From NCBI GenBank assembly GCA_016700135.1, contig CP065004.1, positions 150,001-182,000 of the forward strand: a stretch of DNA of 32,000 nucleotides, read 5' to 3'. Of the stretch, positions 11,501 through 16,281 are shown piece by piece (positions within the stretch are counted from its first letter, which is position 1; each line of letters begins with the position of its first letter). Below the pieces are notes generated by a model. That model searched no databases. It was not told where the DNA came from and was given only the letters and a program-made list of their open reading frames with translations. This DNA comes from Candidatus Saccharimonadota bacterium (GTDB lineage: Bacteria; Patescibacteriota; Microgenomatia; UBA1406; GWC2-37-13). The position numbers were made by a program, and so were the translations under genes.

Positions 11501-11612
11501 GCGGTGTGCTTTCGAAAAAATTCGAACTGATTTCGCCCAAAATTTGTAGGGCGGGCGGAATTCCCCCCAGACCCCCCTTCCGCCCGCCCGCAGAAGCGAC
11601 CCTTTCGGATTG
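11501..11612. repeat. Inverted repeat X, left copy (112 nt)
   Basis: Reverse complement matches 14392-14503 except for two single-nt indels. GC-rich, with an internal 12-bp hairpin (ggcgggcggaa...ttccgcccgcc type). Confidence 0.9.
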
Positions 11613-11683
11613 GACGATTTCAAGTTTTTCGTTCCGCTTTTAGCGGAACTCTGGGTTTCGCCCAGTTTGGCGGCAAATTCTTT

Positions 11684-12598
11684 TTATTTAAAAATTTCTT
11701 TAAAAACTACTTCTAATTCTTTATCTATATTGCTGGGTAATTTTGTATGTGGAATTTTTAAGTTTTTTAACACTGTATCAAATCTTTCAAATCCACCAAG
11801 ACTTCTTAATTCAACCCATTCAATTTTTAAACTATTCAATTGTTTTTTGTTAATGTCAGAAAGTTTGTCAGCTACAAAAACTTTACTGTCTCGTGCTATA
11901 ACCGCATCTGCACTTTCTGGATTCCCTCTTCCCATTAATTTTACTTCGCATTTATACTGATTTGTTCCTTCAACCAAATAAAAATCAATTTCTCTTTCAA
12001 AATCATCTTTTTCAATATCTTTACCTTTTATCTTTAAAGCATAGTTTGCTTCGGGAACACCGTATAATTTACAAAGAGTTTGCATTAGTGGTTTTTCTAC
12101 TCTCTTTCCCGCAGTACTCCATAACCCACCTCTTAATTCTGCTCTTTTAACTGCCAAAGTATTTATTACGATCAAACTCTCACTAACATTTAGATCAACA
12201 CTTACGCCTTTGAATTTGATAGTTAAGGTGAGTTCAAGATCGTGTTCTGTATCAACCAAATTCTTTATAGATTCATATAGTAAATCATAATGTTCATTTG
12301 ATGCATCAATTACTATTTCCTTTGTTGAGGAATTAAACATATTGTGGATTGTCTTTTTATTCAATCCGGAGTTTATAGCAATTTCCTTAGCTGGCAAATT
12401 TGGATTTAAAAAAGCTTTTTTATACCAATCAACAGTAATGTCTTTACTTTTTAGTTTTGCATCTACGATATGTTTAAAAAAATCTATTGCGAATTGTAAA
12501 AATTCAGCGTTAATCAACGTTACAACTTCAATTCTATAATCTTCGCCTTTCAGCAATTTCTTGATTATATTTTTAGCAACTTGTTCTGTTATTGTCAT
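11684..12598 (-). CDS. Putative type II restriction endonuclease (PD-(D/E)XK)
   Basis: EREIDFYLV...YKCEVKLMG fits a D...ExK nuclease core. Its start overlaps the methyltransferase stop by 4 nt (ATGA at 12595-98). The exact family was not recognised. Confidence 0.6.
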   Translation of the reverse strand: MTITEQVAKNIIKKLLKGEDYRIEVVTLINAEFLQFAIDFFKHIVDAKLKSKDITVDWYKKAFLNPNLPAKEIAINSGLNKKTIHNMFNSSTKEIVIDASNEHYDLLYESIKNLVDTEHDLELTLTIKFKGVSVDLNVSESLIVINTLAVKRAELRGGLWSTAGKRVEKPLMQTLCKLYGVPEANYALKIKGKDIEKDDFEREIDFYLVEGTNQYKCEVKLMGRGNPESADAVIARDSKVFVADKLSDINKKQLNSLKIEWVELRSLGGFERFDTVLKNLKIPHTKLPSNIDKELEVVFKEIFK

Positions 12599-14010
12599 AT
12601 ATTTTCCTTAATTATATTTATAAAATTTTTTATGTCGATGAAGTTTGGTTGATTATTCTTTTGATTAAACAAATCATCTTTTTTAATTAAATCTTCTTTC
12701 ATCCTATTTACATATTTTGCTTCTTTTTCTGTCAGGAAGAAATTCCTGTTAAGATTGACAGCAGCTCTTCCCAATGTTCCGCTTCCAGCGAATGGATCAA
12801 AAATTAAATCATCAACAAAAGAATAATATTTTATAACTCTATTGCATAATTCCATTGGAAAAACAGCACTGTGAACCCTATCAAAAGTAGGGTCTATGTG
12901 CCAAACATTCGTGGTTTCGTATTTGTCTTGAACTTTGCTTTTCTTTACTTTATCCCAACTATATTGATGTATATTCCAGTCAATTAGTTTATCTGTCTTT
13001 TTTCTATAAACCATTAGCATTTCAGTAATTGCGTTAGGTTTATAACCTAATGGTTTTCGATGTTGTAAAAAACCCGCATTTCTATTTTTTACACTTGCTT
13101 CGGGTTTCACCCAAACTATATCGTCGATAAACTCCCAACCCATTTTAACCAATAAAGGATGAATGTCATATGGAATAGGGTATCTTTTACTTGCGTGAGC
13201 ACGACTTATTCTAGGAATTATAATTGGTGAAGTATTAAGTACAAAAAATCTACCTTCTTTTGTAACCCGATGAACCTCTTTAAAAACTTCCTCTAAAAAA
13301 TTTAAATACTCATCATAACTCTGATAAATTGAATAATCTCTAGCATTGTAATAGGGCGGTGAAGTAAAAGTTAAGTGAACAGATTCTTCAGGAACATACT
13401 TTAATACCTCTAAAACATCTCCTTGAACAATAGTATTTTTTAAATATTTAGGAAATTCATCGTGCTTGCCGCTATTTTTTGAACTATAGCTTACACCATT
13501 AATTTCCTTACCTATAACCTCCTTTATTAACTCATTCGGATGATTAAGTAATTTAGATAACTCTTTTTTAACTTGGTCATTATTTGAAAAAACAAGTAAT
13601 CCACGAATGGCCTGCATTACAACTTTCGGATCTTTATCTGATAATAATTTTATCAAGACTGGAATAGTTTTCTCGTTTCTTAATCGCCCAATAGCAGAAA
13701 CTGATTCTCTTCTAACTTCAGTACTTTCATCTTGTTTTGCGAATTTAACGAAAGTATCTAGTAAGGAAATATCACCAATTTTTGCAAGATTCTTCAAGGC
13801 AAGTGATCTTATTGTCTCATTGTTATTCTCTAATAAATTCAATAGTGGTTGTTTGCTGTATCCATTTTTCAATCTTCCTAATTTCTCTAACACATAAACA
13901 ATAGTACCGTCATTTTGATCTTGTAGAAACGATAAAAGAGCTTTTGTATCATTTTTTAAACTATCAATCTGTTCTTTGTTTATTTGTTTGCTTAAAACTG
14001 ATCTATTCAT
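12595..14010 (-). CDS. Beta-class N4/N6 DNA methyltransferase with an N-terminal HEAT-repeat domain
   Basis: Motif IV TFTSPPYYNARDY (SPPY, typical of m4C enzymes) comes before motif I FDPFAGSGTLGRAA, which is the beta order. The first ~180 aa have PBS-lyase/HEAT-like repeats (ETIRSLALKNLAKIGD, STEVRRESVSAIGRL, DPKVVMQAIRGL). Confidence 0.9.
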   Translation of the reverse strand: MNRSVLSKQINKEQIDSLKNDTKALLSFLQDQNDGTIVYVLEKLGRLKNGYSKQPLLNLLENNNETIRSLALKNLAKIGDISLLDTFVKFAKQDESTEVRRESVSAIGRLRNEKTIPVLIKLLSDKDPKVVMQAIRGLLVFSNNDQVKKELSKLLNHPNELIKEVIGKEINGVSYSSKNSGKHDEFPKYLKNTIVQGDVLEVLKYVPEESVHLTFTSPPYYNARDYSIYQSYDEYLNFLEEVFKEVHRVTKEGRFFVLNTSPIIIPRISRAHASKRYPIPYDIHPLLVKMGWEFIDDIVWVKPEASVKNRNAGFLQHRKPLGYKPNAITEMLMVYRKKTDKLIDWNIHQYSWDKVKKSKVQDKYETTNVWHIDPTFDRVHSAVFPMELCNRVIKYYSFVDDLIFDPFAGSGTLGRAAVNLNRNFFLTEKEAKYVNRMKEDLIKKDDLFNQKNNQPNFIDIKNFINIIKENI

Positions 14011-14014
14011 AATT

Positions 14015-14583: not shown

Positions 14584-14601
14584 CTTTGCCCCGAATGGGC
14601 T

Positions 14602-14620
14602 GGCCAAAAGCGGGCTTCCC
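14602..14620. repeat. 19-nt inverted repeat, right arm (partner 14325-14343)
   Basis: See 14325-14343. Confidence 0.9.
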
Positions 14621-14652
14621 TAATTTTCATTTTTAATTTTTAAGAAGGAACT

Positions 14653-16281
14653 ATGAAATATTTTATTTACACTCGAAAATCAACGGATAGTGAAGAAAGA
14701 CAGGTTTTAAGTATTGAAGCTCAGCTTGCTGAGCTAAAAGAATTTGCCGCCAAAGAAAAACTTGAAATCGTCGCCTCGCTTAGCGAGGCAAAAACTGCCA
14801 AAGAACCTGGCCGAACTGTGTTCGGCGAAATGCTTGCTCGGATTGAAAAGGGCGAAGCCCAAGGAATTTTGGCTTGGCATCCGGATAGACTGGCTAGAAA
14901 TTCCATTGACGGAGGCAAAATCATTTATCTGCTGGACACAGGAAAGATCAAGGATTTGAAATTCCCAACATTTTGGTTTGATAGCACACCGCAGGGAAAA
15001 TTTATGCTAAACATTGCCTTTGGCCAAAGCAAATACTACATTGACAACTTAAGCGAAAACATCAAACGAGGACAGCGAGCAAAGTTAAGAAAAGGCATTT
15101 GGCCAAACTTTGCCCCGCTTGGTTATTCCAATAATCCAAAAACAAGGGCGATTGATATTGATAGCGAGAAAGCACCATTTGTCAGAAAAGCATTTGAACT
15201 TTACGCAACTGGAGAATACACACTAAAAGCCCTTGCTAAAGTTTTGGATCAAGCGGGGCTAAGAAGCTATAAAGGCAATGTTCTTTCCGTTTCCTGTGTC
15301 CAGCGACTTTTGCAAAATCCGATTTATTACGGAGTATTTTCTTTTAATGGTGAAATTTATGACGGAACGCACGAGCCAATTATTTCCAAGAAACTTTTTG
15401 ATTCTGTTCAACAAGTAATGAGCAACCGAGGAAAAAAGAAAAGAAAGAGAAAACACGAATTTGCTTTTTCTGGGCTGATGAAATGCGGAAATTGCGGTTG
15501 CTTCATTACTGCTGAAAAACAAAAAGGTCATAACTATTATCGTTGCACCAAGAAAAAGCAACCATGTAATGAGAAATATTTGCGAGAAGAAAATCTTGTT
15601 GAACAGATAAAAGCAGTTATTCAAAAAGTTTCTTTGCCTGACGATTGGGCGGAAAATATGATTGCCGAGATAGACAAGGAACGAGAACGGGCGAAAGAAG
15701 AAACGAAAGTTTTTGTTCAAAATCTGCAAGCTAAGAAAACAGAGATTGAATCCAAAGCCGAAAATCTGCTTGATCTGTTTATTGGCGGAAAAGGTATTGA
15801 ACCAGAAGAATATCAGCTTAAAAAACAAAAACTTCTCAACGAGAAGCTGGATATTCAACAGAAAATTAAAGATTTTGAACAAAAAGGAAATAATTGGCTC
15901 GAACCGATGAAAGAAATGATTTTAGCCAGTAGCAAAGCCAAAATTCTTTTGTCGCAAAGCGACAATCAAGAAATCCGAGCATTCCTAAAAAATATCGGCT
16001 CGAACTTCATTTTGAAAGATAAAAAATTCCAATTTGCGCTTAAAATCGGCTGGCGAGCCCTCGAGAGAGGCGACGAGCCAACAAAGACATTTCCTAACTG
16101 GCGGAGAGGGGGGGATTCGAACCCCCGGTGGGTTACCCCACGCCGGTTTTCGAAACCGGTACATTCGGCCGCTCTGTCACCTCTCCTTGTGATATGTATT
16201 ATATCAATATTACCTCAAACCTTCATTTGTAGTGGACATATGCGGCCAGTAACTTATAATATTGTATGTCAGAACATATAA
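14653..16281 (+). CDS. Large serine recombinase (resolvase catalytic domain, recombinase domain, zinc ribbon, coiled coil)
   Basis: [19 protein letters not shown] (catalytic Ser region), [40 protein letters not shown] zinc ribbon, Lys/Glu-rich coiled coil. AAGGAA SD upstream. The last ~60 codons (from 16105) are antisense to tRNA-Ser, so the functional C-terminus is uncertain. Confidence 0.9.
15987..16014. repeat. 28-nt inverted repeat P, right copy
   Basis: See 14344-14371. Confidence 0.9.
16021..16104. repeat. Inverted repeat Q, right copy (84 nt, perfect), abutting and including the last 6 nt (CCGCCA) of tRNA-Ser
   Basis: See 14500-14583. It lies inside the recombinase 3' coding region. 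Confidence 0.95.
16099..16186 (-). tRNA. tRNA-Ser (anticodon CGA), class II with a long variable arm and encoded CCA
   Basis: Hand-folded cloverleaf: acceptor GGAGAGG/CCTCTCC, 3-bp D stem ACA/TGT, anticodon stem CCGGT/ACCGG with loop TTCGAAA, variable arm GTGGG-GTAA-CCCAC, T arm GGGGG-TTCGAAT-CCCCC, discriminator G, CCA. Confidence 0.95.
16198..16206 (-). promoter_or_regulatory. Extended -10 promoter (TGaTATAAT) for tRNA-Ser
   Basis: Minus strand tgatataat, ending 11 nt upstream of the tRNA 5' end. Confidence 0.4.

Follow-up and report, generated by a model that had tools for sequence, protein, structure and literature searches.

The stretch of DNA analyzed here (hereafter the window) comprises 32,000 nucleotides of a Candidatus Saccharimonadota bacterium (contig CP065004.1, positions 150,001 to 182,000 of the forward strand). 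Positions 11501-16104 of the window are an integrated mobile island of 4.6 kb, driven by a large serine recombinase and inserted at the extreme 3' end of a tRNA-Ser gene. The island has a junction with host DNA on either side (sites A and C) and an internal, inverted site B that combines one arm of each. We infer that B is a working second attP, the attachment site of the element, which would make the recombinase cassette invertible or, equivalently, permit insertion of the island either way. The chances that this account of the role of B is right seem to us about even.

A first-pass annotation had placed three junctions in this region, and all their coordinates and sequences were reproduced. 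Site A reads L1-GCGG-X (from position 11491), where L1 is the host flank; site C reads Q-GCGG-tRNA-Ser (from 16091); and site B is an inverted Q-GCGG-X. Repeat alignments of the window confirmed that B is exactly the left arm of C joined to the right arm of A, in inverted orientation. In reverse complement, the Q repeat at 14500-14583 equals 16021-16104 over all of its 84 nt (100% identity), and the X repeat at 11501-11612 matches the reverse complement of 14392-14503 with 98.2% identity over 113 columns, including two 1-nt indels. BLAST E-values of the inverted repeats are 1e-43 and 2e-51 in a 4.9-kb region. Chance is excluded because of these values and because dozens of independent assemblies, complete or near-complete genomes among them, show the same relation between A, B and C built from other sequences. 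Read in reverse complement, the core at 16101-16104 corresponds, as had been proposed, to the two terminal bases of the acceptor stem followed by the discriminator G and the initial C of CCA. The same GCGG at 11501-11504 forms a direct repeat of the crossover, and the island end meets an intact tRNA 3' end: the final bases and the CCA of tRNA-Ser(CGA), the sole tRNA of the window, come from the island. The G+C content is 0.29-0.32 over the cargo (about 0.30) and 0.38-0.49 in the flanks.

The open reading frame (ORF) of the recombinase has no stop codon at the junction. It crosses the core into the antisense strand of the tRNA gene and ends about 60 codons further on, so that amino acids 1-484 (to position 16104) are encoded by the element and the remainder is read from antisense tRNA and host DNA. 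X holds the native final 14 codons, CAFEKIRTDFAQNL (11505-11546), a TAG stop codon (11547-11549) and a GC-rich terminator-like hairpin (11549-11589). The frame of the hybrid site Q-GCGG-X accordingly reads ...FPNWR-CAFEKIRTDFAQNL-stop and is followed by a 12-bp GC hairpin (minus-strand ORF 14455-14607); in other words, the minus strand of site B presents an intact 3' end of the recombinase gene with its native tail, stop codon and terminator. X thus supplies the 3' end and the terminator of the gene itself, attP lies inside the recombinase gene, and integration replaced the last 14 codons and the terminator with antisense-tRNA sequence. The attP-form protein, as reconstructed, has 498 aa. Two endings were likewise found after ...NWR in the 120 closest homologues: one resembles RGRDSNPR, which is the tRNA T-loop in antisense translation, and the other is a conserved native tail, WRxxLxxIRTxF. 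Homologues that share the native-type tail include P0002, P0087, L002 and L042.

Three domains were recognized in the protein: Resolvase (PF00239, E = 2e-19, residues 4-149, with conserved R8 and S10 in the N-terminus), Recombinase (PF07508, E = 7e-17), which corresponds to DNA-binding domain 1 (DBD1), and a zinc ribbon (PF13408, E = 5e-10) corresponding to DBD2. The recombinase aligns with the structures of the SPbeta and A118 integrases; sequence similarity is distant, and NCBIfam scores fall far under the cut-offs of every named family, XisF and Ccr included. By eye, residues ~330-440 are charged and heptad-like. By its domains and its predicted attachment-site geometry the enzyme is a large serine recombinase that fails the expectation of a two-sided attB (the target site).

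The type of each arm was deduced from a [CT]GAAC motif. Compared with its place in the tRNA arm, this motif is shifted away from the crossover by exactly 5 bp in X, a spacing shared by 52 of 53 distinct loci, the window included. In the window the motif, ATTCGAAC, is found at 11520-11527, 15 nt from the core in X, and the distance in the tRNA arm is 10 nt. Large serine recombinases follow the rule that the DBD2 motif is 5 bp nearer the centre in attB than in attP (PMC11722253). Since the shift matches this rule, the X arm is of P type and the tRNA arm of B type; A is therefore attL, C is attR and B is attP. The view that the island is bounded by attL and attR and contains an inverted attP, which the first-pass annotation had raised, is thus supported by the domains, the 5-bp rule, the AT-richer composition of the island and the presence of relatives at 12 kinds of tRNA. 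Q provides the other P-type arm and the last 27 element-encoded codons of the recombinase, and together with the core and the tRNA it makes up attR.

The other half of the target behaves differently from what one would expect of a quasi-symmetric site. The left flanks at 71 A-equivalent sites are unrelated, and no motif that might represent a conserved left half of attB was found among them. Because these 71 flanks are motif-free and just 3-8 nt of core are shared with the other junctions, the tRNA half alone specifies the target. No outer motif is present in the Q arm, and a two-sided attB is not seen. X and X' hardly ever differ in the 30 nt next to the core, with mismatches at 3 of 1710 positions. 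As a separate observation, the L1 flank of the window (11476-11504) holds GTTCGAAT 8 nt left of GCGG, which mirrors the T-loop motif if the crossover dinucleotide is the last GG. The attB of the window would then be two-sided, unlike the 70 other flanks, and this we regard as a local oddity.

The design found in the window is shared by a large family. A protein search detected thousands of relatives, with identity up to 92%, and the matches listed by family scans comprise more than 450 loci that were confirmed in species-representative genomes, with over 450 others from metagenome contigs. We classified 169 loci, 113 of which had enough upstream sequence to be evaluated. In 104 of the 169 the recombinase gene reads into the 3' end of a tRNA gene, and 12 tRNA types are represented: Ser (58 loci), Leu (14), Gln (9), Arg (7), Trp (4), Val (3), Ala (3), Lys (2), and Asn, Tyr, Asp and Glu with a single locus each. 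The core varies with the tRNA (TGGCGG, TGGTGC, TGGCTG, TGGTGGA and others). An inverted copy of the last 80-100 nt of the gene, Q', immediately precedes the recombinase gene in 94 of the 113 evaluable loci. X' adjoins Q', the matching X is found at the far end of the island, 1-9 kb off, and the middle site is always the hybrid of the outer two. Each locus has repeat sequences and a core of its own, and the three-site design is kept down to 54% protein identity. Because of this locus-specific recurrence, which extends to the complete genome L067 (AP024682.1), the design is neither an accident of the window nor an assembly artefact. X and Q were never found as dispersed repeats apart from the recombinase, and wherever relatives carry the repeats at a tRNA, a recombinase gene is present too; two outcomes that would have spoken against the first-pass annotation were thus not observed.

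Most genome records of the family are metagenome-assembled genomes (MAGs) of Patescibacteria. Recombinases at least 94% identical are also found in bins labelled Kiritimatiellia, Gammaproteobacteria, Omnitrophota and others, labels that are possibly wrong. For instance, the recombinases of L007, L009, L018 and L027 are 94-96% identical to that of the window, and the MAG labels are Kiritimatiellia, Gammaproteobacteria, Pseudomonadales and Patescibacteria. Near-identity across phyla reflects either very recent transfer or mis-binning. A single distant match (48%) was detected in viral contigs, and the family is not evidently viral. The existence of minimal circular elements was considered and rejected, as neither of two short contigs, L002 and L001, proved circular. 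In full-text searches on this family and on dual inverted attP sites, with incomplete coverage of the literature, no published description was found.

An indication of how the sites are used comes from loci where the recombinase gene ends in sequence other than a tRNA. Thirty such loci were found, and the native [IV]R[TN] motif is present in 12 of their tails; L042 is one of the 12, as a flipped cassette and not as an array unit. In the four loci checked (L019, L084, L086 and L091), whose contigs reach far enough downstream, the attP-form ORFs are upstream units of tandem arrays. With a slash at each junction, the order is L1/X1...X1'/Q1'-rec1-Q1/X2...X2'/Q2'-rec2-Q2/tRNA, and every unit has its own pairs of X/X' and Q'/Q. 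Because the array junctions are Q1/X2, that is, old Q joined to new X, recombination between attP and attR occurs between elements: the array sequences show an incoming attP apparently recombined with a resident attR, which thus seems to stay usable as a target. The products of such a reaction are again an attP-type site and a Q/tRNA site, and we infer that it is reversible in principle.

Because attP x attR recombination occurs between elements, B (attP) and C (Q/tRNA) of a single island would form a legitimate pair of inverted substrates. Recombination between them would regenerate the same two site types, so that the recombinase cassette would be reversibly invertible; equivalently, a free circle could enter the tRNA gene through either attP. 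In the common state, the recombinase gene is head-on to the tRNA gene, has a foreign tail and lacks its own terminator, and this state may be quiescent. In the rare flipped state, the gene would stand behind the tRNA promoter, rejoined to the native tail and terminator contained in B, and would be putatively armed. Rare flips of the cargo would take place through the X repeats, probably by homologous recombination.

Alternative orientations are indeed found. The first-pass annotation had suggested that the X repeats might make the cargo invertible and the Q repeats the recombinase gene; flipped cargo and flipped cassettes, as rare cases across the loci of the family, lend partial support to this possibility. 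Relevant cases can be summarized as follows. The cargo segment is flipped in L011 and L124. In L156 the order is tRNA-Leu, Q', gene, Q/X; the gene points away from the tRNA and keeps its native tail, Q' and Q are 99% identical over 97 nt, and the cargo is also reversed, as expected for entry via B. L042 has only its recombinase cassette reversed; behind the cassette come X, then c, b and a (short blocks described below) and finally the cargo. In L169-L172 (e.g., L170, 4413-6330) the cassette is reversed and the segment Q-core-X-c-b has been lost between two direct copies of b; the recombinase, truncated after b, is fused in frame via block a to the gene of a helix-turn-helix (HTH) controller. 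The fusion product of 559 aa (P0048) is found on 7 contigs and is what one would expect from a b-b deletion in a flipped island. A further locus, L078, has a cargo-free recombinase cassette (7799-9595) between two convergent tRNA-Ala genes (CGC and UGC), which looks like a cassette exchange through both attP sites or like a chromosomal inversion.

Several observations weigh against a role of B in switching. Orientation is strongly skewed: a flipped cassette is found in four lineages, compared with 104 loci where the gene reads into the tRNA. The skew may mean that flipping is rare, that it is counter-selected, or that flipping is not the purpose of B; it fits a trap in the quiescent state and fits a seldom-recombining B equally well. 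Furthermore, the evidence on orientation is limited to comparisons between loci, and in L042 the Q' on the tRNA side is of another subtype and mismatches the gene's own Q. To our knowledge, attP x attR is not a reaction of canonical large serine recombinases; a relaxed rule would have to apply here, as read from the structure of the arrays. Silencing by the tail swap or by head-on transcription would be one reading of the layout of the common state. An exact 27-mer across the predicted attB of the window, whose predicted empty site is atcctaggatGCGGagagggg, gave 0 matches in metagenome contigs; a lineage without the island is possibly unsampled. Lastly, conserved short blocks that accompany B are left without explanation, and these are the main feature that the proposal does not account for.

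The blocks are copies of parts of the recombinase gene and its leader, placed in reverse complement next to the repeats. Contiguous with X' are a' (14318-14343), a copy of the recombinase leader at 14602-14627; b' (14344-14371), a copy of gene nt 1334-1361, just before Q; and c' (14372-14391), a copy of gene nt 137-156. The full set of a', b', c' and Q' is present in 71 of 113 loci. At the other end of the cargo, d' follows X in almost all of 31 loci examined. In the window d' consists of two parts, 11613-11630 (to 11633 by repeat search) and 11666-11684, which are split by a double-hairpin insert of ~32-35 nt (11634-11665). Such an interruption of d' by two tandem hairpins at one gene position is found in 11 loci, and its sequence differs between sub-families. 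Block copies track the gene of their own locus, synonymous positions included, and differ from it by ~1-2%. The cargo segment and the recombinase gene are colinear if the former is read in a circle: block a comes first, the cargo stands for the first 82 nt of the gene, d is next, X'/X takes the position of the small hairpin, and c, a deletion and b complete the order. Attempts to derive this order from a simple inverted copy, a tandem dimer, a single inversion or a crossover at the internal hairpin were unsuccessful, as none fits without extra steps.

An RNA-duplex role of the a', b', c' and Q' copies was considered and rejected. Their 175 mismatches with the gene comprise 60 that would be G:U pairs on the plus strand, 57 on the minus strand and 58 of other kinds, and because there is no G:U bias on either strand, homogenization or copying at the DNA level is favored over RNA pairing. 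An Rfam search detected the tRNA only.

These data are relevant to the view that B is mainly a cis-regulatory or insulating sequence: an operator of high affinity through which the recombinase would regulate its own gene, a terminator that would keep read-through from the tRNA gene out of the cargo, and, with a', b' and c', a fold-back structure that would block translation of the recombinase from read-in transcripts, as in IS10. Its position directly upstream of the recombinase leader across loci would be well suited to such a role, as would the strong hairpin after the stop codon in X and the overlap of block a with the region of the ribosome-binding site (RBS) in several loci. Folding of the leader gives a long a'/a stem (z = -4.2), and the nearly fixed orientation of cassette and cargo is also what regulation in cis would predict. 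However, the mismatch spectrum argues against selection for an RNA duplex, and neither an operator nor a terminator would need near-perfect identity over 80-130 nt on each side of the core. L078 and L156, in turn, are hard to account for unless B recombines. Promoter and terminator scans over the island were uninformative, with nothing usefully above shuffled expectation. Altogether, we consider it unlikely that regulation is the main function of B.

If B does work as a second attP, an inverted attP might provide directionality encoded in DNA. Because the enzyme seems to read the tRNA half only, B (or an array junction) and attR would always make up a pair of one attP-type and one attB-type site. 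The serine recombinase would then be reversible without a directionality factor: the cassette could toggle between a locked and an armed state, units could be lost from arrays, and one protein would suffice for the island to leave and to re-enter. We put this forward as a tentative extension that is rather unlikely at present.

The same lack of a directionality factor admits another explanation, in which B is an architectural third site. A recombinase dimer bound to attP would bridge and unlock attL and attR by coiled-coil contacts, and excision would take place without a directionality factor. A published model has coiled-coil contacts of P-type with B-type subunits underlying synapsis (PMC11722253), which speaks for this possibility. 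In favor are also the absence of a candidate directionality factor in islands down to 2.5 kb, which hold one unrelated cargo gene, and the presence of B throughout the family (Q' in 94 of 113 loci) with intact core-proximal arms. The reasoning is, however, purely structural. Should the left arms be devoid of a zinc-ribbon motif, there may be no product lock, and a helper site would then be needless; moreover, the long repeats and the blocks are left unexplained. For these reasons an architectural role appears quite unlikely.

One might also view B and the blocks as a frozen by-product, that is, what is left of a second, inverted copy of the element after internal deletion, kept similar by gene conversion and without a selected role. 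The circular colinearity of the cargo segment with the recombinase gene would be a natural trace of such a copy, the mismatch spectrum looks neutral, and short copies do recombine, as shown by the deletion in L170. Maintenance of the design is, however, difficult to reconcile with lack of function: it is kept to 54% protein identity, at 12 or more target tRNAs and in hundreds of loci, and useless repeats that cause deletions should disappear. In addition, copies of 20-28 nt retain ~98-99% identity to the gene, and in comparisons between lineages the synonymous sites of that gene are saturated. A by-product is thus very improbable. Contigs of relatives do often break just upstream of the recombinase gene, yet the probability that the inverted repeats are artefacts of metagenomic assembly is practically nil, since the same architecture recurs with locus-specific sequences in more than 90 independent assemblies of many projects, L067 (AP024682.1) and contigs of 0.3-0.7 Mb included. 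As a side observation, the ends of contigs very often fall in the recombinase gene itself or in the few hundred bases ahead of it (L004-L009, L013, L027, L029 and many others), probably as a consequence of the inverted repeats or of multiple copies.

Comparison with known systems places the island between several of them. It shares with the large serine integrases of phages and integrative and conjugative elements (phiC31, Bxb1, A118/LI, SPbeta SprA) the domain set, hybrid attL and attR sites, a very short core and the 5-bp shift. Unlike enzymes of the phiC31/Bxb1/A118/SPbeta type, the island recombinase targets the extreme 3' end of a tRNA gene, with one attB half specified, and has attP in its own ORF; the island differs in having a second, inverted attP, no visible directionality factor, and an attR that is re-used to form tandem arrays. 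'Suicidal' archaeal tyrosine integrases of the SSV type also have attP in the integrase ORF and tRNA targets, and hybrid genes derived from different elements are known (PMC7253208). As in the island, integration alters the integrase's own gene, and the hybrid genes are comparable to the junctions of old Q with new X. The island, in contrast, has a serine recombinase, is bacterial (mostly Patescibacteria MAGs), and has 12-17 end codons swapped rather than a split gene, with a spare inverted 3' end. In mycobacteriophage BPs and relatives, which have integration-dependent immunity, attP lies within the repressor gene and integration changes the C-terminus as a switch (PMC4557955). The gene-internal attP is a common trait; the BPs gene is, however, a repressor gene, its integrase is a tyrosine integrase and there is no inverted spare copy.

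Segments controlled by serine invertases (Hin, Gin of Mu, Cin of P1) resemble the island in that inverted sites flank a segment that bears the recombinase and in that a flip would change a coding fusion; inversion in Mu and P1 swaps the C-termini of tail fibres. The island differs in having a large recombinase of 484 aa instead of a small invertase with a C-terminal HTH, and no enhancer or Fis involvement is evident. Its sites are attP and attR, which are not equivalent and serve integration too, and both orientations are seen between loci. Islands that accrete in tandem at tRNA genes have in common with it the insertion at the tRNA 3' end and its restoration, low G+C content, accessory or defense cargo, and arrays. 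Classical tRNA islands use tyrosine integrases and duplicate 15-50 nt of tRNA, whereas a serine recombinase and 3-8 nt are involved here. No system among those compared unites all four traits, namely a serine integrase, targeting of a tRNA end through one half-site, an attP within the integrase gene and a spare attP in inverted orientation.

Large serine recombinases are valued as one-way tools of genome engineering, and it is of interest how elements that lack a directionality factor run the reaction backwards. If a spare site does make the reaction reversible or switchable, it would represent a new control principle. The family offers an attachment site inside the gene of its own enzyme, a universally conserved tRNA target that is read one-sided, and a spare inverted site. 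In Patescibacteria the family apparently ranks among the major carriers of restriction-modification genes and other defense genes, which bears on gene exchange between tiny genomes that have neither plasmids nor, in these islands, conjugation genes.

The features of the island are listed in Table 1.

Table 1. Position and strand of the attachment sites, repeats, blocks and genes of the island (window coordinates).
Feature	Positions	Strand	Remarks
Site A (attL)	11491-11530	none	Host flank L1, core GCGG 11501-11504, start of X
X, P'-type arm of attP	11505-11612	+	Native recombinase tail codons, stop, hairpin, ATTCGAAC motif
Block d'	11613-11684	-	Reverse-complement copy of recombinase gene nt 84-120; adjoins stop codon of the restriction endonuclease gene
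Restriction endonuclease gene, CfrBI-like	11684-12598	-	Pfam RE_CfrBI, E = 4e-24
DNA methyltransferase gene (N6_N4_Mtase)	12595-14010	-	PF01555, E = 1e-40; HEAT_2, E = 9e-20
Controller-type HTH gene	14015-14230	-	71 aa; first of cargo operon; Pfam HTH_3, E = 2e-16
Blocks a', b', c'	14318-14391	-	Contiguous reverse-complement copies
Site B, complete inverted attP	14392-14583	-	X' 14392-14499, core CCGC 14500-14503, Q' 14504-14583
Block a, leader element	14602-14627	+	Just upstream of recombinase RBS; second copy precedes cargo operon
Large serine recombinase ORF, integrated form	14653-16281	+	542 aa; Resolvase, Recombinase and Zn_ribbon_recom domains
In-gene source copies	14736-14826	+	d 14736-14772, hairpin 14773-14789, c 14790-14809, hairpin 14810-14826
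Source copy b + Q + core	15987-16104	+	b 15987-16014, Q 16021-16100, GCGG 16101-16104
tRNA-Ser(CGA), B'-type arm of target	16099-16186	-	Rfam tRNA, 54.6 bits

The cargo genes of the window are co-oriented and overlap or lie 4 nt apart; their order and domains point to a type II restriction-modification operon of controller, methyltransferase and restriction endonuclease. The N-terminus of the methyltransferase consists of ~170 aa of HEAT/Armadillo repeats, and the same fusion is found in the cargo of L014. The L1 flank contains CCTAGG, which fits CCWWGG, the kind of site cut by CfrBI. About half of the related islands start their cargo with an HTH controller-type gene: among 85 cargo ORFs from 31 islands, 16 encode HTH controller-like proteins, located at the a' end. 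Other cargo of these 31 islands includes DNA methyltransferases of several classes, enzymes of the CfrBI and Eco57I/MmeI types, AAA_15/AAA_21 ATPases and S24-peptidase fusions. The smallest islands, of 2.5 kb, encode one small protein that has no match to leading Pfam families.

Additional observations concern hairpins. The double hairpins in d' are probably the cargo terminator. The loci that have them are the window, L006, L014, L052, L054, L057, L060, L061, L065, L066 and L079. The insert, of 34-66 nt, is located at gene nt 101/102 (72/73 in L079, 96-103 in L006) and always comprises two hairpins, which are GC-rich or AT-rich depending on the sub-family; related sub-families share similar inserts. 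Within the recombinase coding region, two 7-bp GC hairpins bracket block c, GCCTCGC-TTA-GCGAGGC (14773-14789) and GCCGAAC-TGT-GTTCGGC (14810-14826). The second is terminator-like on the minus strand, and a related hairpin is present in L002. Outside the island, a minus-strand ORF (18281-19609, 442 aa) resembles, by eye, a domain of the amino-acid or uridine monophosphate kinase type fused to an S-adenosylmethionine-dependent methyltransferase motif (LDVGCGTG).

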